The position numbers were made by a program, and so were the translations under genes. This document shows positions 55,341 to 64,000 of a stretch of 64,000 nt of DNA, piece by piece. The notes under the pieces were generated by a model. It had not been told where the DNA came from, made no database searches, and saw only the letters and a list, made by a program, of their open reading frames with translations. This DNA comes from Opitutales bacterium (lineage in GTDB: Bacteria > Verrucomicrobiota > Verrucomicrobiia > Opitutales > UBA2987): assembly GCA_021772515.1 (NCBI GenBank), contig JAJFLU010000009.1, forward strand, positions 5,929 through 69,928. The letters run 5' to 3'. Position 1 is the first letter of the stretch. Every line of letters begins with the position of its first letter.

Positions 55341-56432
55341 TCATGCAAATACTATCATATTGCGCAGCGCTTTACCTTGGTTCATGAGCTCGATGGCCTC
55401 ATTGATTTCCTCCAGCGGGTATCTTCCACTAATCAATTCCTCGAGCTTGAGATGACCGCAATTGTGGAGGTCAACCAGCCGGGGCACATCCACGCCCAAT
55501 CGGACTGAGCCCATGCGGCTGCCGATAATTCGCTTCTCGGCGCGGACCAGGGACATCGCTGAAAAGGAAACGAGGGTATCGACCGGCGGGAGGCCGACGA
55601 TGACAACCGTGCCCCGTTTGCCAACCAGCTCCACCGCCTGCTCGATGGCTTTTACGGTCCCGACTGTGACAAAGGCATAATCGGCCCCGCGGCCCGAGGT
55701 GATTTTTCGGATTTCCTCGGCGATGTCGCCATCACCAACCCGCAGGCAGTGGGTGGCCCCGAACTCTTTCGCCTTTTCCAATTTGCTCTCCAGTAAATCT
55801 ATGGCAATGATGGGGTAAGCCCCGGCCAGAGCTGCCCCCTGAAGGGAATTCAGACCGACACCCCCGGCCCCGATAACCGCGACCGAAGAACCCGTTTCGA
55901 CTTGGGCGGTATTGACGACTGCCCCCACACCGGTGACGACGCCGCAGGCGAGCAAAGCCGCACGCTCCAGCGAAAACCCGGATGGCACCGGAACCACCTG
56001 TGATTGGTCCACGACCACACATTCGGCAAAACCCGCAGTAAACAAGCCTGGAGCCAGAGTCTGACCCTTCAAATTTCTCAATCGGCTTTCACGAGCGAGG
56101 GCAAAATCACCCGAGCACATTTGGGGCAGACCCTTGGTGCAATAATGGCAGCGTCCGCAATTACGGACCAGGCAAACCACCGCCGGATCTCCCACCTTGG
56201 CCGTGGTTACACCGGGGCCAACCTCCTCGACAATCCCAGCCACCTCATGCCCTGGAACGAGGGGCACAGGGCCGCCCCATTCCCCTTTGATCAAATGGAT
56301 GTCGCTATGGCAAATACCGGTTGCGGCCACACGCACCTTGACCTCGCCTTGTTGGGGCGGATCGATTTCGATCTCCTCGACGACGAGGGGTTTTCCAAAT
56401 TCGTAACAAACTGCCGCTTTTATTTTTTCCAT
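55341..56432 (-). CDS. Zinc-dependent alcohol dehydrogenase (class III/medium-chain)
   Basis: GICHSD, GHEVAGIVEEVG, structural-zinc Cys cluster CGRCHYCTKG, and GAGGVG Rossmann motif. Confidence 0.9.
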   Translation of the reverse strand: MEKIKAAVCYEFGKPLVVEEIEIDPPQQGEVKVRVAATGICHSDIHLIKGEWGGPVPLVPGHEVAGIVEEVGPGVTTAKVGDPAVVCLVRNCGRCHYCTKGLPQMCSGDFALARESRLRNLKGQTLAPGLFTAGFAECVVVDQSQVVPVPSGFSLERAALLACGVVTGVGAVVNTAQVETGSSVAVIGAGGVGLNSLQGAALAGAYPIIAIDLLESKLEKAKEFGATHCLRVGDGDIAEEIRKITSGRGADYAFVTVGTVKAIEQAVELVGKRGTVVIVGLPPVDTLVSFSAMSLVRAEKRIIGSRMGSVRLGVDVPRLVDLHNCGHLKLEELISGRYPLEEINEAIELMNQGKALRNMIVFA

Positions 56433-56465: not shown

Positions 56466-56999
56466 TCAAAGGTTTTCGGCCTGATATTCCTGGGCAAACC
56501 TGTCCAGCAATTGCCGGACGCCCATATCGAGGTAGGATTTCTTATTGGTAATTCCGAGGATGGTTTTTTCCCAGGTTGGCGCGTAAATTCCGGCCAGGTT
56601 ATCGGTGGGCCTTTCGAGTGAAACCATTTCCTGCAATGCCAGCCTGAGGGAAAAAATATAACCGCTGCCGTCTTTTACCTTTCTCAGGAGGACGGCCAGT
56701 TCAAGAATCGGTTTGCCCGGCGCCCGGGAGAGTTTTTCCTCGGTGTAAACGTTGAGATCGATCTTCTTGAGGTGGTCCACGATCAATTTTTGCAACCCCT
56801 CCTGAGAAACTCCCAACTCCTCGGCATCGAAGGTCATTCGGTTTACATTTACCCCAAAACCGGGAAGGTTCTGGAGGGAACTCAGTGAAAATCCGTGGGT
56901 CTCAGCAATGGGGTGAATGGCCAGAAGCAAGGCGAATCCCCAAAACTGGCATAACCGTTTGTTGATCCACTTATTTGTAATATTGAACTTGAACAGCAT
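56466..56999 (-). CDS. Hypothetical secreted protein
   Basis: 177 aa ORF with a signal-like N-terminus (LCQFWGFALLLAIHPIAETHG). No recognisable family. Coding status is judged only from length and position. Confidence 0.4.
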   Translation of the reverse strand: MLFKFNITNKWINKRLCQFWGFALLLAIHPIAETHGFSLSSLQNLPGFGVNVNRMTFDAEELGVSQEGLQKLIVDHLKKIDLNVYTEEKLSRAPGKPILELAVLLRKVKDGSGYIFSLRLALQEMVSLERPTDNLAGIYAPTWEKTILGITNKKSYLDMGVRQLLDRFAQEYQAENL

Positions 57000-57001
57000 C
57001 C

Positions 57002-57940
57002 ATGGATGTTAGAAGAGTTTCCACCGAAATGAAAGCGCGCTTTCTAGTATTCCTTTTCATAGGTTTGACTCCGCTGCGAGCCGAACAGGCCGAGGAAGAG
57101 CCACCGGCAGCATCATTGCCGAAAGATGTGGCAATGGTCTCCGATCTGGTTTATCGGGAGGATTCTTCCAAACCGCTGATGCTGGATATCTACCGGGCAG
57201 AAGATGAAACCACCGGCGAACCCCTGCCCCTGCTCGTTTATATTCATGGCGGCGGTTACCGCAGGGGGACTCGATCGGAAGTTCTGGAAATACCTTTTTT
57301 CCGCGAAATGCTGCTGCCTTTGGTCGCCGAGAAAAAAATCGTTCTCGCCTCCGTTGATTTTAGCAAAGGGAGCAAAAAGTCCCCCCTCAGCACATTGATT
57401 GACGATTGCCGGAAGGCGGTTGGCTGGTTGAAGGAGTTTGCGGGGGACTACGGTATCGATGCTTCGAGGGTCGGGCTGTTGGGCAATGCCAGCGGCGGGC
57501 ATCTAGCGTTGATGACGGGCCTCAAGGATGAACCGGTTTCCTTTATTATCGCTTTTGGACCGGTGACTGATTTGCACCAAATCGCCCTGGAAGTCTCCGA
57601 GAGCGAAGACAAGGATAAGAAAAAAGTGCGCACCCAGTTGAAATTCGGTTTGGGCGGCACGGTGGAGGAAGTCCCCGAAAATTATATCAATGCCAGCCCG
57701 GTCAATTTCATCGAAAAATCATCCTCGCCTATTCTTATTATTACCGGCGAGGAAGACATCCTTTTCCCGCAATCGCAATTGATCGAAGAGAAGAGTCTGG
57801 AAATAGGGGCAAATTTGCGGTTGGTTACTGTGAAAAGCGCAGGGGATGCGGTATATGTTGTTGAGAACTATCCCGAAAGATCGCCTGATCTGCCAAAGAT
57901 ACAGGAAATAGCGACCGGGTTTATGCAGGAGCATTTTTAA
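57002..57940 (+). CDS. Alpha/beta hydrolase (esterase/lipase, HGGG type)
   Basis: Oxyanion motif YIHGGGY and nucleophile elbow GNASGG. The signal peptide begins at the second Met (57029, MKARFLVFLFIGLTPLRA). Confidence 0.8.
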   Translation: MDVRRVSTEMKARFLVFLFIGLTPLRAEQAEEEPPAASLPKDVAMVSDLVYREDSSKPLMLDIYRAEDETTGEPLPLLVYIHGGGYRRGTRSEVLEIPFFREMLLPLVAEKKIVLASVDFSKGSKKSPLSTLIDDCRKAVGWLKEFAGDYGIDASRVGLLGNASGGHLALMTGLKDEPVSFIIAFGPVTDLHQIALEVSESEDKDKKKVRTQLKFGLGGTVEEVPENYINASPVNFIEKSSSPILIITGEEDILFPQSQLIEEKSLEIGANLRLVTVKSAGDAVYVVENYPERSPDLPKIQEIATGFMQEHF

Positions 57941-57988: not shown

Positions 57989-58774
57989 ATGATTCCTGCC
58001 ATCATGAATATTTTGGATCTTTTTAAACTGGATGGGCGCGTGGCATTGGTGACTGGTGGAAACCGCGGGCTCGGTTTTGAAATGGCTTCCGCTTTAGCCG
58101 ATGCAGGGGCCTCGGTGGCTCTTATGAGCCGGGATGAAGCCCTTACTTTGGCTTCCGCCGAGAAAATCCAGGAGCGGACGGGACAAAAATGCATCGGCAT
58201 CAAAGGTGATGTGGTCCGCGAAGAGCAGGTGCAGGGAGCAGTTGACAGGGTGGTCGCTGAGTTCGGGGAAATCGATATTTTAGTCAACAGCGCGGGCATC
58301 AATATCCGTGGAGCCATCGAGGATCTATCGGTCGAGGAGTTTCGGCAGGTGCAGGAGGTCAATGTGACCGGTTCCTGGCTGACTTGCCGGGCGGTGGCAC
58401 CGATTATGAAGGCCAACAATTACGGACGGGTAATCAACATCAGCTCGATGGTGGGAGTGACCTCGATTCCCGAGCGCACCCCTTATTCCACCAGCAAGGG
58501 CGCGGTTTTGCAATTGACGCGGGCGCTGGCCATGGAATGGGCCACCAAGGGCATCACGGTCAACGCGATACTGCCGGGCCCGTTTGGCACGGAGATGAAT
58601 CTACCCCTCATGAACGACCCCGAGAAATACCAGGCATTTATCTCCAAAATCCCCATGGGGCGCTGGGGAGATTTGCACGAAATCGGCGGAGTCGCGATAT
58701 TTTTGGCCAGCGATGCCTCGAGCTATGTCACCGGGGCCGGTTTTTCCGTGGATGGCGGGTGGGTTGCCCAATAG
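57989..58774 (+). CDS. SDR family oxidoreductase (gluconate 5-dehydrogenase-like)
   Basis: TGGNRGLG cofactor motif, NSAG, and YSTSK catalytic motif. The start could be the Met at 58004. Confidence 0.93.
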   Translation: MIPAIMNILDLFKLDGRVALVTGGNRGLGFEMASALADAGASVALMSRDEALTLASAEKIQERTGQKCIGIKGDVVREEQVQGAVDRVVAEFGEIDILVNSAGINIRGAIEDLSVEEFRQVQEVNVTGSWLTCRAVAPIMKANNYGRVINISSMVGVTSIPERTPYSTSKGAVLQLTRALAMEWATKGITVNAILPGPFGTEMNLPLMNDPEKYQAFISKIPMGRWGDLHEIGGVAIFLASDASSYVTGAGFSVDGGWVAQ

Positions 58775-58793: not shown

Positions 58794-59792
58794 TCAATGG
58801 GTGCCGATGAATGCGCCGCCGTGCTGGTAGGTTAACTCCCGCATGAGGTTGGCAAACTTGAGGCCTGTGCGGGTGAAGTGCCGCTCGTACTTGATTACGT
58901 GGGGAAATCCGATGGCGTTGATGGTGATTGGCCTCTCCCCGGTCTCCTCATCGGGTTTGTTGGCAGTATCAATGCGATTTAATACCTTTTCCGCAGTCTG
59001 AGTAAATTCGTCGCCAAAGATATATATCCCGATTTTATCTTCCGATGTTTTGTCATCTCGGAAGGAGCGAATGGCTCTCAAGATACCGGGGACGGGGTTA
59101 CTTTGGCTGTGATGCTCGTAGTTGTTAATGGCCCTGACAATACTGTTTCGCACGCTTCTGCTATCGGGCAGCCACTGGCCGCGGCTTGAGCGGAGGATGA
59201 AGTTGCCATCGGCATCCATAACCTGAATGGCTTTGACGATGGGGTAAGCGAGGAGGGTTTCCTGGATTTTGGTGGTCACGGTTTCCCAGATTTTCCCCGT
59301 GCTGGGGTCGCGCATACTCCCGGAGGTATCCATCACGAAAATTATTTTATTGCTTAAAACCGGCACTCCGATTGGCAGATCAGAATCATTTTGGGGGATG
59401 CTCACCTCTTTTTCCCGCGCGTCGATCTCCTCTTCGAGGTTATCCACATCGACGAGAAGCTTTTCTTTGCCAAATTCGGCATCCTTGATCCGGTTGATCA
59501 ATTCATCGAGGTCCACCTGCATGGAGGCCAGCCGATCCTCTGTTTCTTTTTCGAGTTTTTCATTGAGGACGACAATCCGTTTCAACTCCTCCTTTTTACT
59601 TTGAACTCTGGAAAGCTCACTCATGCGTTCCTGAAAGAGTTTCTCGAGGGCGTCGCGGACATCAAAAATAACCAAACGCTCCGAACCCATCGAAATGACG
59701 AAAAGGAGGATAACCGCCCCGAATCCGCAACTGATGACATCGAGGAAGGAGAGGCTGAAAACGGAAATATCGCGCTTTTTTTTCCTGCTCAT
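58794..59792 (-). CDS. TolR/ExbD-like N-terminal TM (conserved Asp) - coiled coil - vWA domain protein, intact MIDAS (B2)
   Basis: N-terminus MSRKKKRDISVFSLSFLDVISCGFGAVILLFVI. About 100 aa of heptad-like E/K/L-rich sequence. vWA with IIFVMDTSGSM (DxSxS), IYIFGDEFT and ITINAIGFP. ATGA overlap with the upstream paralog. Confidence 0.75.
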   Translation of the reverse strand: MSRKKKRDISVFSLSFLDVISCGFGAVILLFVISMGSERLVIFDVRDALEKLFQERMSELSRVQSKKEELKRIVVLNEKLEKETEDRLASMQVDLDELINRIKDAEFGKEKLLVDVDNLEEEIDAREKEVSIPQNDSDLPIGVPVLSNKIIFVMDTSGSMRDPSTGKIWETVTTKIQETLLAYPIVKAIQVMDADGNFILRSSRGQWLPDSRSVRNSIVRAINNYEHHSQSNPVPGILRAIRSFRDDKTSEDKIGIYIFGDEFTQTAEKVLNRIDTANKPDEETGERPITINAIGFPHVIKYERHFTRTGLKFANLMRELTYQHGGAFIGTH

Positions 59793-60853
59793 GTTTCAGG
59801 CCAGGTTTTCGAAGGACAGATGAAGGAACCTTCGGTTTTGGTCGAGAGAAGCCAAAAATTTGTGGCCGCCCCGGGATCTCCGCTCATGGGCATCATGATG
59901 ACGTTGACCGGAATGCCTGTGGGGGTTTGGCGCTTGGCCGCGCTAAACATACGCTCTCTGGCGCTTTGGTCGATGATGGGGCCAGCCGGAACGGAGTCGC
60001 TCAATGTGGGCAACCCGTCCACAAAGAGGATGATATTGTCGGGCCTGGGATTCATGCCTCCGACATAAAAAAATGCCCGCTCGAGATTGGCCCCTCCCTT
60101 GGGGGTGTATTCTCTCATTTTTTCCAAAGCCTCAGCCAGGGTTTGCCGGTCGGTAATTTCAAGCCATTCTCCGGCCCGGAGGGATATCACCGAATCAATC
60201 TCCTTGTTGAAAAAGATTATCTGGTACCGGCTGGGGGCTTTGAGGGCAGTAATCATCCACTCGACGGCCTTCAGGGTGCGCAGCCATTTGGGGGCCTGGC
60301 GTTTTATCTCATCTCTGTCGCCGAGGCGTTCGATGGCCCCATCGATGGTGTCGTCGAGCATACCACCGGAAGCTTCGATGAGAAAAAGGACGCGCTCCCC
60401 GTCGAGCTTGAAATCGGTCAGGTATTGGCGTTTTACGGGGTTGGGCATCGGGATGGGAACCTCCTCTGGAACGGTGGGCAGGTTTTCCATATCCCCCAGC
60501 AAGGTAGCCCGGAGTTCTTCCATCTCAGCCAATTGGGCCAGCAGGAGGCTCAGGTCGGTGGTTCGATCTTTGAGGCTGCTTGATATCTCGATTTCCCTTT
60601 TTTTTCGGTCCTTGAGCTTTTTTTTAATTTCCTCGATGGATTCGGCAAGCTGAACAAGGATTCTCTCCTCGGACTGGATGTCCATTCGCATCCGTCCCAA
60701 ATCGATTTCGGTATCGGAAAGCTGATTGACGTGATGGGCGGACTTTTTTCCGCTGGTTAATACAAAGAGCAGGATGATGGCCCCAAATCCACAGCAGATG
60801 ACATCGAGAAATGCCATGCTCAGTGGTTGGAGTCCTTTTTTCTTCCTGGCCAT
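59789..60853 (-). CDS. TolR/ExbD-like N-terminal TM (conserved Asp) - coiled coil - vWA-like domain protein, degenerate MIDAS (B1)
   Basis: N-terminus MARKKKGLQPLSMAFLDVICCGFGAIILLFVL, a coiled-coil stretch, and a vWA-like core VLFLIEASGGM / IILFVDGLPT / VNVIMMPMSGD. Confidence 0.72.
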   Translation of the reverse strand: MARKKKGLQPLSMAFLDVICCGFGAIILLFVLTSGKKSAHHVNQLSDTEIDLGRMRMDIQSEERILVQLAESIEEIKKKLKDRKKREIEISSSLKDRTTDLSLLLAQLAEMEELRATLLGDMENLPTVPEEVPIPMPNPVKRQYLTDFKLDGERVLFLIEASGGMLDDTIDGAIERLGDRDEIKRQAPKWLRTLKAVEWMITALKAPSRYQIIFFNKEIDSVISLRAGEWLEITDRQTLAEALEKMREYTPKGGANLERAFFYVGGMNPRPDNIILFVDGLPTLSDSVPAGPIIDQSARERMFSAAKRQTPTGIPVNVIMMPMSGDPGAATNFWLLSTKTEGSFICPSKTWPET

Positions 60854-60937
60854 GTTGTTTGATGATGCCCCGATGGGGATTAATTAATGAAAATAAACGC
60901 TCTCTTTGGGCTGTTCGGTATTTTTTAAAAGGTCTTA

Positions 60938-62392
60938 TCAATCGTTGCAGTGGATGAGGAGCCAATCGAGTGGCTCTCGCCCACCGTCGAGTGTTAAAAC
61001 ATCACCCGGTTTGAGGACCTCACCGTTGTTGGCAGGCTGGCCATTCAGGAGCACATTCAGGTGCCCGGGGTTTTCAATTTGCAGATTGCCGTTCTGAAGG
61101 CGTTTGAGAGAAATATGGCGGGGGCTTTCTCCAAATCGATAACCCGACGAGCCTATCGGATGCCCGATGCCCTTGCAGACGATATGCGTTGAAATAGGTG
61201 CCGCGGGGCCCTCCTCACCGGTTGGGGCTGAAATTTGCTGCTTCGGGGGCTCCGCTATTTCCGCCGTGGCGACCGGGGGCAAACCCAACTCGCCAAGCTC
61301 GATGCTGGTGGTGATTTCCGCCTCCGCCAAATCTTCAAACACAGGGGCATCTTTGCCAAAAAGGGCCGCACCAAGAGCCGCCGAGCCCGCCTCCGCGACC
61401 GAGATGGAGCATTTGCTCATGGAGGCAATTTTTTCTGCTAGACCGGGAATTTTGGCGGCCCGTTGACTGAATACGAAGGGTATTTCGGTATTTCGACGGG
61501 CAAATCCGGTTTCCTTGAGAGCCTTTTCCACCATATTGGTCAGGGATTCGTTAATCGACTCGAGGTGCTTGGCTGCGGTGTCTCTGTAAACGGATAATTT
61601 TCTGGCCCGCTTGAGGCTTTCCATCTCGATTGTGGCTTCTTCCTGTTCCCTGAATAGCTCCAGGAGGTTTTGGACCTGATCGTAAAATTGCTGCTCTGTT
61701 TCGGCGTTGTGGGTAACGTCGAAGGCGGTCTGGCTGAGAAAGCTATTGGCCAGTTTGGGATTCAAATCCGCAAAGATATGATGGAATCCGATGGGCGCTG
61801 TGGCCAAGCGCGAGCGGCGCACGCTCGATCCCACTTCGAGTATGCTGAGAAAAGTCGAGTGCTGGTGAACATCGAGGTGAAAAACTAATTTCTCCTTGAT
61901 GCCGAGGCGGGCCATGTCGGCGGCCAGTGAGGCACATGCCATATCGACAATACCGGCCAGCGGGATTTTGAGATCATCGGCAATGCCCAGAATGAGTCCG
62001 ATTTTTTCTTCATCTCCATCATCCTCTGCGAGGAAATTACCAGGAAGGGCGAAAACCACTTTATCCACCGGCTGACCCGCCTGAATGCGCTCCCAGACCA
62101 TATTCAGATGGTAGTAGGCCAGTTCGGAATAACGGGGGGACTTACCACGGGGCACGTTTAGCTCGGAGAGTCGGAGGGATAATTGATCCCAACAGCGGTC
62201 GGTAACAAATCGCGGGTAGATGCGGGACCGTTTCTGGGCCTGCCGACCACAGATATAGCGCCGGCCATCGTAATAAACAAACCCTGGGCTCTCCGCCCCC
62301 GAAGATTCCAATTCAAGAATCCGGTTCGTCGATTCGTCCGTTTCCGCAGCGACAAACCCTTCGTCGCAAAATTCTATGCCAAGTGTTCTCAT
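60938..62392 (-). CDS. Hsp70/actin-fold (ASKHA) protein with degenerate nucleotide-binding loops fused to C-terminal FHA-like domain
   Basis: Colinear Hsp70-type blocks: LGIEFCDEG (phosphate 1), VVFALPGNF, LAGIVDMACASLAA, LVFHLDVHQHSTFLSILEV (phosphate 2), VFSQRAAKIPGL (adenosine) and AEAGSAALGAALFG. The last ~85 aa, SPRHISL...NPGHLNVLLNGQPANNGEVLKPGDVLTL, are FHA-like. Confidence 0.65.
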   Translation of the reverse strand: MRTLGIEFCDEGFVAAETDESTNRILELESSGAESPGFVYYDGRRYICGRQAQKRSRIYPRFVTDRCWDQLSLRLSELNVPRGKSPRYSELAYYHLNMVWERIQAGQPVDKVVFALPGNFLAEDDGDEEKIGLILGIADDLKIPLAGIVDMACASLAADMARLGIKEKLVFHLDVHQHSTFLSILEVGSSVRRSRLATAPIGFHHIFADLNPKLANSFLSQTAFDVTHNAETEQQFYDQVQNLLELFREQEEATIEMESLKRARKLSVYRDTAAKHLESINESLTNMVEKALKETGFARRNTEIPFVFSQRAAKIPGLAEKIASMSKCSISVAEAGSAALGAALFGKDAPVFEDLAEAEITTSIELGELGLPPVATAEIAEPPKQQISAPTGEEGPAAPISTHIVCKGIGHPIGSSGYRFGESPRHISLKRLQNGNLQIENPGHLNVLLNGQPANNGEVLKPGDVLTLDGGREPLDWLLIHCND

Positions 62393-62431
62393 AATAGTGA
62401 TGGTAAAAAATTCGATCCTTCGCGGCTGCGC

Positions 62432-63295
62432 TCAGGAAAAAGTGACCTCCGTTTCCTCCTGATAGGGGATTTTCATGACTGCAATCAGTTTTTCCCGACA
62501 ATATTCTTCGACATCGAGGATAAGGCTTTCCTGTCGCGATTGCAGCAGGTGGATAAAGTACATGAGGATAATGCTTAAAATCAAAGCAACAAAAGTCGAG
62601 TTGAAGGCCAGACCGAGGGAATCAGTGACACCCTGGATATTACCCCGGATGGCCTGATCTGCCTGCGAGAGGGCTTCACCGATACCGCGCACAGTGCCGA
62701 TGAATCCAACCGAGGGAATGGCCCATGCGATGTAGCGGACGAGCGAGAGATCCGAGTCGAGTCGGTCGGCCTCCGATTCAGAAATCTCCCGAACGGCCTG
62801 GGAAACATCCTGTATGGAGTGGGTTGAGTGAAAGCGGTGGAGGGCAGTCAGGACAACTGTTGGCAGTAGTTTGCCAATTAAATGGGGGTTATGCTGGAGT
62901 CGGGATTCGAGATGCTTGGAGTGACTGAGAGCCTCGAGGGGAATGATTCGCTCGCCCCTCTCGATATCGACAAAGGTTTCCCCCATCACTCTTTTTTCAT
63001 GGTAAACCAGGTATAGCTTAAAAATGATGATGATCATGGCCCACGAGAGGAGCACAAAGCAGCTCTCCTGCTCATAATTCTGCAGAATAATATAGATATT
63101 GCGCTCGGGCACATACCCCTCTCGTCCGCTATCCTGCTCACGCAGAACCTGCTGAGTGATGGTCACCGCCTCTGCCTTGGGGCGGATATGCAGGGTGTAA
63201 AAAGCGTGAATCAAAACGAAAGAAACGACCAGGCCGAGAAACTGGACGATGTTCTCCTTCGAGAAGAGGGTGTAGTGATTATTTTTTGCGGACAT
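62432..63295 (-). CDS. MotA/TolQ/ExbB-family proton channel protein (4-TM MotA-like topology)
   Basis: 287 aa. TM1 FLGLVVSFVLIHAFYTL, TM2 CFVLLSWAMIIIIFKLYLVY, an ~85 aa loop, TM3 IAWAIPSVGFIGTVRGIG and TM4 LGLAFNSTFVALILSIILMYFIHLL, which carry the family signature. Confidence 0.85.
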   Translation of the reverse strand: MSAKNNHYTLFSKENIVQFLGLVVSFVLIHAFYTLHIRPKAEAVTITQQVLREQDSGREGYVPERNIYIILQNYEQESCFVLLSWAMIIIIFKLYLVYHEKRVMGETFVDIERGERIIPLEALSHSKHLESRLQHNPHLIGKLLPTVVLTALHRFHSTHSIQDVSQAVREISESEADRLDSDLSLVRYIAWAIPSVGFIGTVRGIGEALSQADQAIRGNIQGVTDSLGLAFNSTFVALILSIILMYFIHLLQSRQESLILDVEEYCREKLIAVMKIPYQEETEVTFS

Positions 63296-63318
63296 TGCAA
63301 TTTGTTGAAACCGGTATG

Positions 63319-63350
63319 GGTATTCTATGGTTTACTGTATTTAGAATACC
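63319..63350 (-). promoter_or_regulatory. Perfect 9-bp inverted repeat (GGTATTCTA-N14-TAGAATACC) in the leader of the MotA-like operon
   Basis: Arms at 63319-63327 and 63342-63350, 24-55 nt upstream of the ATG at 63295. An alternative register pairs CCGGTAT (63311-17) with ATACCGG (63346-52). Could be an operator or a 5' UTR hairpin. Confidence 0.25.
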
Positions 63351-63726
63351 GGGCGAAGTTTTTATTTCGATAAGATGATCTGTTCGTGGTGTTTGAAGAT
63401 ATTTATTAACATGTTTGCATAGAATAATACCTGCCAAGGCGAAATGGTTGCAAAAACAGGCAAAGAAAAATGAAATCATGCGGCAGCGCAACAATCCTTT
63501 TCCCGTTTGTGGAAAAGGAAATTTCTGGATTTTGCTACTTGCCTTGCAGGATAAATGATCCTATGTCTATATTCTGGGGAAAATGCCTTGAATACTAATT
63601 ATCTGAGCCGTTAACATAAGAAATATCAATTTTTCATCATTCATCGGGAAGAAACCCACTTGCAAATCCCTCTTTACTCTATAGAAAAATAATGCCTTCA
63701 ACTGAAAAGAAACTGGATTAGAATTC

Positions 63727-64000
63727 ATGAAAGTAAAAAGTAAATCCCAAATCAGCAAACTAATAGCCCTGTTATTGGTCACACCGATGGTCCTTTTCAG
63801 CGGCTGCGCAACCAGTTCGCATACCGCCAAGGGTGCCGGTGTCGGTGCCGTGGCGGGCGGAGCCACCGGAGCCATAATCGGAAAACAGAGCGGAGAAACC
63901 GGTGAGGGCGCCGTCGTCGGAGCGCTGGCAGGAACCGCCATCGGAGCATTGTTGGGCGCCGCCAAAGATGCCAGGATATCCCGCGAACAGGAGCAAATTG
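63727..64000 (+). CDS. Glycine-zipper lipoprotein (partial, 3' end outside window)
   Basis: Not in the ORF track because it has no stop in the window. The ATG at 63727 gives MKVKSKSQISKLIALLLVTPMVLFSGC (lipobox), then GAGVGAVAGGATGAIIG...GAVVGALAGTAIGALLGAA glycine-zipper repeats. Confidence 0.7.
   Translation, partial: MKVKSKSQISKLIALLLVTPMVLFSGCATSSHTAKGAGVGAVAGGATGAIIGKQSGETGEGAVVGALAGTAIGALLGAAKDARISREQEQI

Follow-up and report, generated by a model that had tools for sequence, protein, structure and literature searches.

Organization of the Locus

The DNA analyzed here, referred to below as the window, is a stretch of 64,000 nt from an Opitutales bacterium (assembly GCA_021772515.1, contig JAJFLU010000009.1, positions 5,929–69,928 of the forward strand). 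Between positions 58794 and 63295 it carries four co-directional minus-strand genes, named g1, g2, g3, and g4 in the order of transcription, whose products are probably the parts of an ion-driven motor of the inner membrane. The first encodes a TolQ-like channel protein, the second a protein in which a fold like that of the Hsp70 nucleotide-binding domain (NBD) is joined to an FHA-like domain, and the last two encode paralogs with a single transmembrane (TM) helix, a long helix, and a vWA domain. Gaps of 39 nt (g1–g2) and 84 nt (g2–g3) separate the first three genes, and the stop codon of g3 shares 4 nt (ATGA) with the start codon of g4. This arrangement had been described in a first-pass annotation, made by a model from the letters of the window, and is confirmed by the coordinates of the open reading frames. 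All four genes start with ATG and end with TGA, and a sequence scan found no terminator-like site on the minus strand between them.

Conservation of the Cassette

Genomes, one per species, were scanned for the TM motif of g3 and g4 (described below), which was found in at least 597 of them; the analyses of loci use the best 80, identified by L numbers. These 80 lie in Verrucomicrobiota (Opitutales), Kiritimatiellia, Desulfobacterota, Gammaproteobacteria, Burkholderiales, Acidobacteriota, and Planctomycetota, and the carriers include marine Opitutales, Halieaceae, Woeseiaceae, and Desulfobacterales. The gene neighborhood bears out the unit first read from a single contig: the genes are colinear, in the order g1-g2-g3-g4, at 61 of the 64 loci that have enough upstream sequence, across six phyla. 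The same four genes, with 4-nt overlaps, are also found in independent gene calls of marine contigs that encode the g2 homolog P0012 ("Ca. Moanabacter tarae"). When g4 was used as a tblastn query against 72,556 plasmids and 50,697 phage records, no match was returned. The synteny, the breadth of the families, and the lack of plasmid or phage copies together establish that the cassette is real, old, and chromosomal, and that it is inherited as a unit. Some carriers are in culture (Pelagicoccus spp., Lentisalinibacter salinarum, and Horticoccus sp.), which makes genetic analysis feasible.

g1 Is a TolQ-like Channel Subunit by Homology

The g1 product (287 aa; 62432–63295, minus strand) matches the Pfam family MotA_ExbB (PF01618) with an E value of 8.9e-16 and a score of 58.2 bits, against a cutoff of 22.9. 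Its closest matches are to TolQ (E = 7e-8 in NCBIfam and 0.008 in the PDB). Hydropathy gives four hydrophobic segments, at about residues 16–37, 79–97, 187–207, and 229–251, in a MotA-like layout. The first-pass annotation had proposed this four-TM topology together with a family signature in TM3 and TM4; both hold, and the strings that it quoted from the two helices are present. The TM3–TM4 core spans residues 187–252 (RYIAWAIPSVGFIGTVRGIG ... LGLAFNSTFVALILSIILMYFIHLL; 62540–62737, minus strand). In the HMMER alignment to TolQ, IPSVGFIGTVRGIG of g1 falls on sPYIGLFGTVWGIM and LAFNSTFVAL falls on EALIATAIGL, with T201 and T234 at the TolQ threonines of GTVWGI and ALIAT. By this alignment, T201 and T234 occupy the pore-threonine positions of TolQ. 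Among 66 g1 homologs from six phyla, both residues and most of the surrounding pattern (RYIxWAIPxxGFxGTVRGIG...LGxAFNST) are at least 90% conserved. We assign g1, by homology, as the channel-forming A subunit of the MotA/ExbB/TolQ family, which is presumably pentameric.

g3 and g4 Combine a Transmembrane Helix, a Long Helix, and a vWA Domain

The g3 product (354 aa; 59789–60853, minus strand) and the g4 product (332 aa; 58794–59792, minus strand) follow the same plan of basic tail, TM helix, long helix, and vWA domain, and are the two B-subunit candidates of the cassette. Their paralogy, which had been noted at first pass from N-termini that were quoted exactly, is evident in BLASTP (E = 1e-15, 31% identity over the first 175 aa). 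Both open with a K/R-rich tail followed by FSLSFLD-x-I-C-C-G-F-G-A-x-I-L-L-F-V. The candidate transpore helix of g3 covers residues 9–32 (QPLSMAFLDVICCGFGAIILLFVL; 60758–60829, minus strand), and the TM helix of g4 lies at 59694–59765 on the same strand. The aspartates of these helices, D17 in g3 and D18 in g4, are invariant across six phyla. In the g3 helix, D17, C21, G22, G24, A25, and L28 are invariant. The consensus of the helix, FSLSFLDxICCGFGAVILLFV (sequence FLDVICCGFGAIILLFVL), contains no histidine and no SHLS/His motor-box motif. The invariant cysteine (C21 in g3, C22 in g4), which lies within D-x-I-C-C-G-F-G-A and is mostly preceded by a second Cys or by Ser, is unusual in a TM helix; small-residue packing in a pore and a link between subunits are both possibilities.

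The 12 residues on the N-terminal side of the helix carry on average 3.7–3.8 K+R and about 1 D+E (net charge about +2.7), and the 12 residues on the C-terminal side carry about 2 of each (net about 0). By the positive-inside rule, this bias places the N-terminus in the cytoplasm, the rest of the protein in the periplasm, and the aspartate at the cytoplasmic end of the helix. The predicted topology of g3 and g4 is thus N-in with a periplasmic vWA domain.

In the AlphaFold2 (AF2) model of g3, a single continuous helix runs from residue 23 to 123, and the C-terminal domain (about 150–354) has predicted local distance difference test (pLDDT) values above 90. Foldseek identifies this domain as a vWA fold, with ITIH1 matched at 1e-7 and further matches to the bacterial structure 4fx5, CLCA1, the BatA-like 4jdu (a Bacteroides aerotolerance membrane protein), and integrin I domains. 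Pfam VWA_2 or VWA_3 matches 13 of 22 members of the g3 family and 14 of 23 members of the g4 family, and the window's own g4 matches VWA_2 at 6e-4. Profiles of the complete g3 and g4 families, run against the PDB, matched coiled-coil proteins only, so the vWA assignment was taken from the Pfam matches of the families and from the AF2 model with Foldseek. The view that about 100 aa of coiled coil and a vWA domain replace the usual output domain stands: a long helix and a vWA domain are found in both proteins in place of an ExbD/TolR-type or OmpA-type periplasmic domain.

The two vWA domains differ in their metal ion-dependent adhesion site (MIDAS). That of g4 is intact (D155-T-S157-G-S159; 59316–59330, minus strand); D155, S157, G158, S159, and M160 are invariant in 23 sequences from several phyla and at least 90% conserved in 68 sequences. 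In g3 the motif is degenerate (E-A-S-G-G), and the first serine, S162, alone is invariant. The spacing between the TM aspartate and the MIDAS is tightly held, at 134–145 aa in g4 (n = 77) and 137–157 aa in g3 (n = 51), which suggests a stalk of fixed length.

g2 Is an Hsp70-Fold Protein with an FHA-like Domain

On its own, the g2 product (484 aa; 60938–62392, minus strand) has no Pfam match, and hydropathy shows no TM segment in it. A profile built from 25 homologs matched Hsp70 NBDs in the PDB (E = 2.8e-6) as well as FHA domains (CHFR at 7.5e-5; Ki-67 and Rad53 up to 1e-2), and PF00498 (FHA) is precomputed on 7 of 27 homologs. The AF2 model (pLDDT 87, predicted TM-score 0.74) consists of a domain at residues 1–370, a disordered linker at 376–396, and a C-terminal beta-sandwich whose strands span 403–480. 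The top 50 Foldseek matches of this model are all Hsp70, DnaK, BiP, or Ssb; DnaK/Hsp70 NBDs are matched at E values of about 1e-17 to 1e-19, with TM-scores of up to 0.79 against isolated NBDs. From the profile, the model, and the motif columns of the alignment, residues 1–372 (61277–62392, minus strand) are assigned to a cytoplasmic Hsp70 NBD fold and residues 400–484 (60941–61195, minus strand) to an FHA-like beta-sandwich. The family is large, with 996 clusters at 50% identity (E ≤ 1e-30); nearly all of the 150 members listed are 440–530 aa long and align over almost the whole profile. No Pfam or NCBIfam model covers it, and it looks like an uncurated protein family.

The glycine-rich loops that hold ATP are replaced in every member of the family (about 60 homologs), DLGGGT by D/E-x-H-L-H and GGSTR by S/T-D-R-A-A; the window's g2 has D174-VHQHS and SQRAAK at these places. 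With both loops replaced family-wide, g2 does not appear to be a canonical ATPase and probably hydrolyses no ATP. It has neither the DxGGGT phosphate-2 loop nor the GGxxR adenosine loop, and an FHA-like domain stands where Hsp70 has its C-terminal substrate-binding domain. It is an Hsp70-fold protein and not an Hsp70 chaperone.

The FHA-like domain is variable. It is near-canonical (GVSRKHC, GTFVN) in g2 homologs from Desulfobacterota and Woeseiaceae, is shortened in Halieaceae, has lost SxxH in most Opitutales relatives, and is absent from g2 in four lineages (Kiritimatiellia, one Desulfobacteraceae locus, and two Planctomycetota loci). In the window, S423-P-R-H426 is present, the canonical Arg after "IG" or "FG" is missing, and 17 residues are deleted relative to most aligned homologs. 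The window's g2 thus keeps S-x-R-H like the near-canonical Desulfobacterota versions and unlike most other Opitutales homologs. We describe the C-terminal domain as FHA-like and regard phosphopeptide binding as uncertain. The first-pass annotation had read g2 as a phospho-Thr-reading Hsp70-like module that gates the channel or couples to it. This was overstated: the loops are replaced, many members have lost the FHA domain or keep a degenerate one, and no kinase or phosphatase gene is linked to the cassette in the flanks of related loci. Phospho-Thr gating by g2 is weakly supported.

An Extended Cassette outside the Opitutales

Loci from outside the Opitutales carry three further genes on the same strand, 5′ of the four-gene cassette. 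One, found upstream in 27 of these loci (for example L053:439-2535, L080:732-2822, and L047:1455-3794), encodes a TM protein of ~700 aa that combines three to four PEGA domains with an FGE-sulfatase domain at the C-terminus. In the PDB it is matched best by PorK/GldK of the type IX secretion system (T9SS), at 5e-20, compared with 1e-12 for true formylglycine-generating enzymes (FGE). The second, directly 5′ of g1, encodes a small secreted protein (about 65–270 aa) with a signal peptide, a disordered stretch that is acidic or rich in Pro, and the C-terminus F-x-P-S/T-E-x-I-x-x-D-Q-x-V-x-F-P-V-D-I-COOH. This FPVDI-tail protein is present in about 33 non-Opitutales loci (for example L053:2536-2766, L054:2465-2773, and L042:3-287), with hidden Markov model E values mostly of 1e-6 to 1e-13 and weaker at L059, L080, and L047. 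The third, a TPR protein, is often found further upstream. These proteins could plausibly act in the periplasm as ligands or other partners of the vWA heads, with the PorK-like PEGA protein and the FPVDI-tail protein as the obvious ligand candidates; that the FPVDI-tail protein is the MIDAS ligand is a speculation.

Relation to a Published Prediction and to Known Motors

A family of "transpore-helix vWA" (TPH-vWA) proteins was described in 2025 (Mol Biol Evol 2025;42:msaf138; PMC12204202, section 8, Figure 4c-d). Their genes, mainly from Proteobacteria and Verrucomicrobia, are tightly linked to tolQ, without tolR or exbD, and mostly form heterologous pairs (PMC12204202). The TM helix has a conserved Asp and no SHLS/His motif, and AlphaFold 3 models place the two aspartates within the ring of Thr residues in a TolQ-like pentamer (PMC12204202). 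The window locus has every one of these features (a linked tolQ-like gene, a heterologous TM-vWA pair, no tolR or exbD, the TM Asp, and no His), as matched to the published description and not to the sequence of the Idiomarina loihiensis exemplar. I. loihiensis is itself a cultured carrier of TPH-vWA/tolQ-like genes (PMC12204202); Idiomarina is not among the best 80 of the at least 597 genomes with our TM motif. The cassette very probably belongs to the same family as the TPH-vWA/TolQ-like motors of PMC12204202. The only bitopic proteins linked to g1 are g3 and g4, and a jackhmmer search for ExbD/TolR in the window and the flanks of the 80 loci found none in the window and one unlinked ExbD in the flanks. 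The two paralogs are the sole candidates for B (axle) subunits in the cassette, and should be classified with the TPH-vWA proteins and not with TolR/ExbD.

The claim, made at first pass, that no known 5:2 motor has a vWA output is out of date, given the tolQ genes with paired TPH-vWA genes of PMC12204202. On the companion claim, that none is paired with an ASKHA-FHA protein, we found no literature, PMC12505986 and PMC7159879 included, that links an Hsp70-like or FHA protein to a TolQ/MotA-type motor, and PMC12204202 with its supplements makes no mention of Hsp70, DnaK, or FHA. The PEGA/PorK-like, small secreted, and TPR partners likewise go unmentioned in PMC12204202, and no description of the PEGA/PorK-like or FPVDI-tail genes of the cassette was found in the literature.

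Among characterized systems, TolQR and ExbBD have the same TM3/TM4 core with both threonines as g1, a B subunit whose single N-in TM helix bears an Asp close to the cytoplasmic end, and genes in one operon. The cassette differs from them in the four predicted hydrophobic segments of g1, a MotA-like number, as opposed to three in TolQ and ExbB; in having two different B genes where they form a homodimer; in its coiled coil and vWA domain where they have the TolR/ExbD periplasmic domain; and in having no TolA/TonB partner and an extra cytoplasmic Hsp70-like protein. With GldLM/PorLM it shares a long rigid periplasmic shaft on the B subunit. A further likeness is to GldLM/PorLM with the GldK/PorK-GldN/PorN ring: a PorK/GldK-like gene lies 5′ of the motor genes in the non-Opitutales relatives, and the order gldK-gldL-gldM, known from type IX secretion and gliding, is echoed there. 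Among the differences, g1 resembles TolQ and not GldL, the residue to be protonated is an Asp carried by the B helices, vWA domains form the heads, and the window and the other Opitutales loci are without a PorK-like gene.

A Proposed Mechanism and Its Alternatives

We favor, as probable, the reading that the cassette encodes one inner-membrane ion-driven machine of the 5:2 type (MotAB/ExbBD/TolQR), with vWA-tipped stalks and g2 as a partner; we are surer of the motor core than of the whole, and less sure of what g2 does. The context suggests that g3 and g4 pair through their N-terminal helices as a heterodimeric axle within the g1 pentamer, in which D17 and D18 would be the proton-binding sites. 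By analogy with known motors, proton flow through the Asp/Thr site would cause relative rotation of pentamer and axle. The paired helices of ~100 residues would extend into the periplasm as a coiled-coil stalk of ~15 nm, an estimate for a straight 100-residue alpha helix, and the two vWA domains would meet at its tip as an asymmetric heterodimer. Because the full MIDAS is kept by g4 only, such a head would bind one ligand; we envisage that through this site it grips an acidic periplasmic or outer-membrane ligand and passes force or torque to it. On the cytoplasmic face, where synteny puts it, g2 would act as a scaffold built from a non-canonical Hsp70 NBD and an FHA-like domain. It might dock on the cytoplasmic loop or tail of g1 or on the short basic tails of g3 and g4, and might either control assembly and activation or be a cytoplasmic element on which the pentamer acts (a scaffold, clutch, or regulator).

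Several observations weigh against this reading. The N-termini of g3 and g4, which at first pass had been called TolR/ExbD-like, do have the basic stretch, the N-in TM helix, and the invariant D17 and D18, but sequence homology could not be demonstrated. Neither protein matches Pfam ExbD or MotB at E ≤ 1, NCBIfam scans gave no significant ExbD/TolR homology, and a profile of 43 g3 and g4 N-termini run against all PDB chains gave no match at E ≤ 10. An hhalign comparison with a small ExbD/TolR alignment did set D17 on ExbD D25, with a P value of 0.076 and a probability of 0.7%. The resemblance is one of position and context and is not statistical. Of the candidate vWA ligands and partners, the PEGA/FGE, FPVDI-tail, and TPR genes were searched for in the window and in Opitutales loci L001–L036, and none was found. 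The g2 gene is missing from three loci (L044, L047, and L050), so the other genes can be retained in its absence. At L047 (Burkholderiales) and L050 (Opitutales), g1, g3, and g4 are adjacent without it, and L044 has a g4-like gene only. We infer the stoichiometry, the insertion, and the rotation from context and analogy, and the role of g2 solely from synteny.

A further point on the same side comes from FHA-vWA signaling pairs (ArnA/ArnB of Sulfolobus, PMC6509490; the TerY-type vWA-kinase-PP2C-FHA systems), in which, as here, FHA and vWA proteins are encoded together. The ArnA/ArnB-type partners are both cytoplasmic (PMC6509490), which raises an inverted topology in which cytoplasmic vWA domains of g3 and g4 would pair with the FHA domain of g2. 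The charge bias around the g3 and g4 helices makes this unlikely. The signaling pairs also have linked kinase or phosphatase genes, whereas here the vWA domains are predicted to lie in the periplasm and the cassette has no linked kinase.

The motor reading can be extended to a complete trans-envelope rotary machine. The g1 pentamer would turn a g3/g4 shaft whose MIDAS head latches onto an envelope partner (in most phyla the PorK/GldK-like PEGA protein and/or the ...SFPVDI protein), and a nucleotide-blind g2 would serve as cytoplasmic clutch or rotor, for force delivery like that of T9SS and gliding in Proteobacteria, Desulfobacterota, Planctomycetota, and Verrucomicrobiota. We offer this extended version tentatively and consider it rather unlikely in full. 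We know of no Hsp70-fold protein with a clutch or rotor role.

A different output is conceivable for the same core. The vWA heads could sense envelope stress or phage, the motor could signal through g2, and the FHA domain could read phosphorylation, giving a regulatory or defensive response like that of Zorya. ZorAB is indeed a 5:2-type motor core outside motility and uptake, and g1 gives weak PADLOC matches to ZorA (8e-6), but these and the NCBIfam matches cover only about 50–95 residues of the MotA core. At 287 aa, g1 has no ZorA-like long tail (ZorA profiles have 413–505 positions), and the cassette is likewise without the peptidoglycan-binding ZorB domain and ZorC/D-type effectors; its flanks contain no ZorC/D, ZorE, or ZorF/G-type effector genes, and no nuclease, protease, or toxin gene is linked to it in any of the 80 loci. 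In favor of a sensor are the recurrence of vWA, FHA, and Hsp70-like domains in prokaryotic conflict systems, as reported in PMC7159879, and the lack of an obvious mechanical role for g2; the FHA domain that would do the reading, though, is missing or degenerate in many g2 members. The locus is not mobile, as the lack of matches among plasmids and phages indicates, and its flanks are conserved across Opitutales, so that a stable core-genome locus fits better than a defense island. On balance a sensor is unlikely. A defense system was also considered as the main explanation and was rejected: PADLOC returned only the MotA-core ZorA matches and chance-level coiled-coil matches, and there were no plasmid or phage copies.

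The failure to demonstrate sequence homology of g3 and g4 to ExbD/TolR leads to another alternative, in which the paralogs do not insert into the pore. They would be membrane-anchored vWA proteins like BatA/BatB or peripheral partners like TonB/TolA, and g1 would use an ExbD/TolR encoded elsewhere or would be a plain ion channel. The resemblance of the g3 vWA domain to 4jdu agrees with this, as does the existence of another vWA family that binds its motor from the side (PMC12204202). Both paralogs, however, keep the invariant Asp at the cytoplasmic end of a TM helix that has no SHLS/His motif (FLDVICCGFGAIILLFVL), one g1 is strictly linked to one g3 and one g4 with translational overlap, and no ExbD/TolR gene is linked. 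These features argue for insertion, and we regard the non-inserting arrangement as quite unlikely.

An alignment subcomplex like PilM-PilN-PilO or GspL-GspM, an echo of which had been noted at first pass and extends only to an ASKHA-fold protein accompanied by two bitopic paralogs, would have g2 bind the tails of the bitopic paralogs and organize a trans-envelope secretion or fiber apparatus, with g1 as an added energizer; g2 does belong to the ASKHA superfamily and adjoins two paralogous bitopic coiled-coil genes whose products have very short conserved basic tails, and the PorK/GldK-like and small secreted proteins linked in other phyla would suit an export or surface apparatus, but this is very unlikely, because Hsp70 NBDs, and not PilM, FtsA, or GspL, are what g2 matches best in structure, the periplasmic heads are vWA domains and not the ferredoxin-like PilN/PilO fold, no pilus or secretion gene is linked, and no secretin, pilin, traffic ATPase, or platform gene was found in the 80 loci.

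Returning to the 5:2-type motor, the idea that it has vWA B-subunits is well supported and was already published as a prediction in 2025. The first-pass annotation had called the cassette an undescribed ion-driven machine; the machine part of this stands, and the novelty does not extend to the motor-plus-vWA core, which PMC12204202 had predicted. The locus typifies a motor family that has been predicted but is experimentally uncharacterized; we found no experimental work on the TPH-vWA/tolQ-like family in the literature. What the present analysis adds to the prediction is a conserved fourth component, g2, that has lost its ATP-binding loops, a set of lineage-specific candidates for periplasmic partners, an asymmetric head with one live and one dead MIDAS, and a stalk whose length is fixed.

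Ion-driven 5:2 motors power flagella, TonB-dependent uptake, the Tol-Pal system, gliding and type IX secretion, and Zorya defense, and every new output module that is understood is another route by which inner-membrane energy reaches the envelope. Integrin vWA/MIDAS domains form bonds that are strengthened by force, and vWA/MIDAS ends on B subunits would be a natural "hand" for a motor. The system is widespread and mechanistically attractive, although its core will no longer surprise specialists.

Flanking Regions

Upstream of g1 lies a region of 431 nt (63296–63726) with 35% GC, compared with 52% for the window, that presumably holds the promoter(s) of the operon and of a divergent lipoprotein gene. 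It had been described as a 430-bp AT-rich leader; the AT-rich stretch is there, but it is a divergent intergenic region and not only a leader. A single sigma-70-like site on the minus strand (63453–63424) is not above chance, and promoter- and terminator-like sites near the operon are no more frequent than in shuffles. With no Rfam match at E ≤ 1 in this region and sites at chance level, the reading as a riboswitch or small RNA was rejected.

The divergent gene (63727–64000, plus strand; cut by the end of the window) encodes a glycine-zipper/coiled-coil lipoprotein with the lipobox LFSGC. In its sequence (MKVKSKSQISKLIALLLVTPMVLFSGC...), a glycine-zipper region is followed by a charged, helix-like region. 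The independent gene calls mentioned above repeat this layout. The protein is homologous (1.4e-6) to the product of the divergent upstream gene in 19 Opitutales loci. The Opitutales flanks are conserved in having this divergent glycine-zipper lipoprotein, as in the window, and then a DUF4136-like lipoprotein; these neighbors could reflect plain synteny or a functional link.

On the other side, the operon converges on a gene of the SDR family (57989–58774, plus strand), as had been proposed; the motifs TGxxxGxG and YxxxK are present in its product. Judged by sequence motifs only, the genes 3′ of the operon look metabolic and unrelated to it. Beyond the SDR gene are a secreted, alpha/beta-hydrolase-like protein (57002–57940, plus strand; assigned by motifs only), a 177-aa protein with a hydrophobic N-terminus (56466–56999, minus strand), and a protein that resembles Zn-dependent alcohol dehydrogenases, again by motifs only (55341–56432, minus strand).

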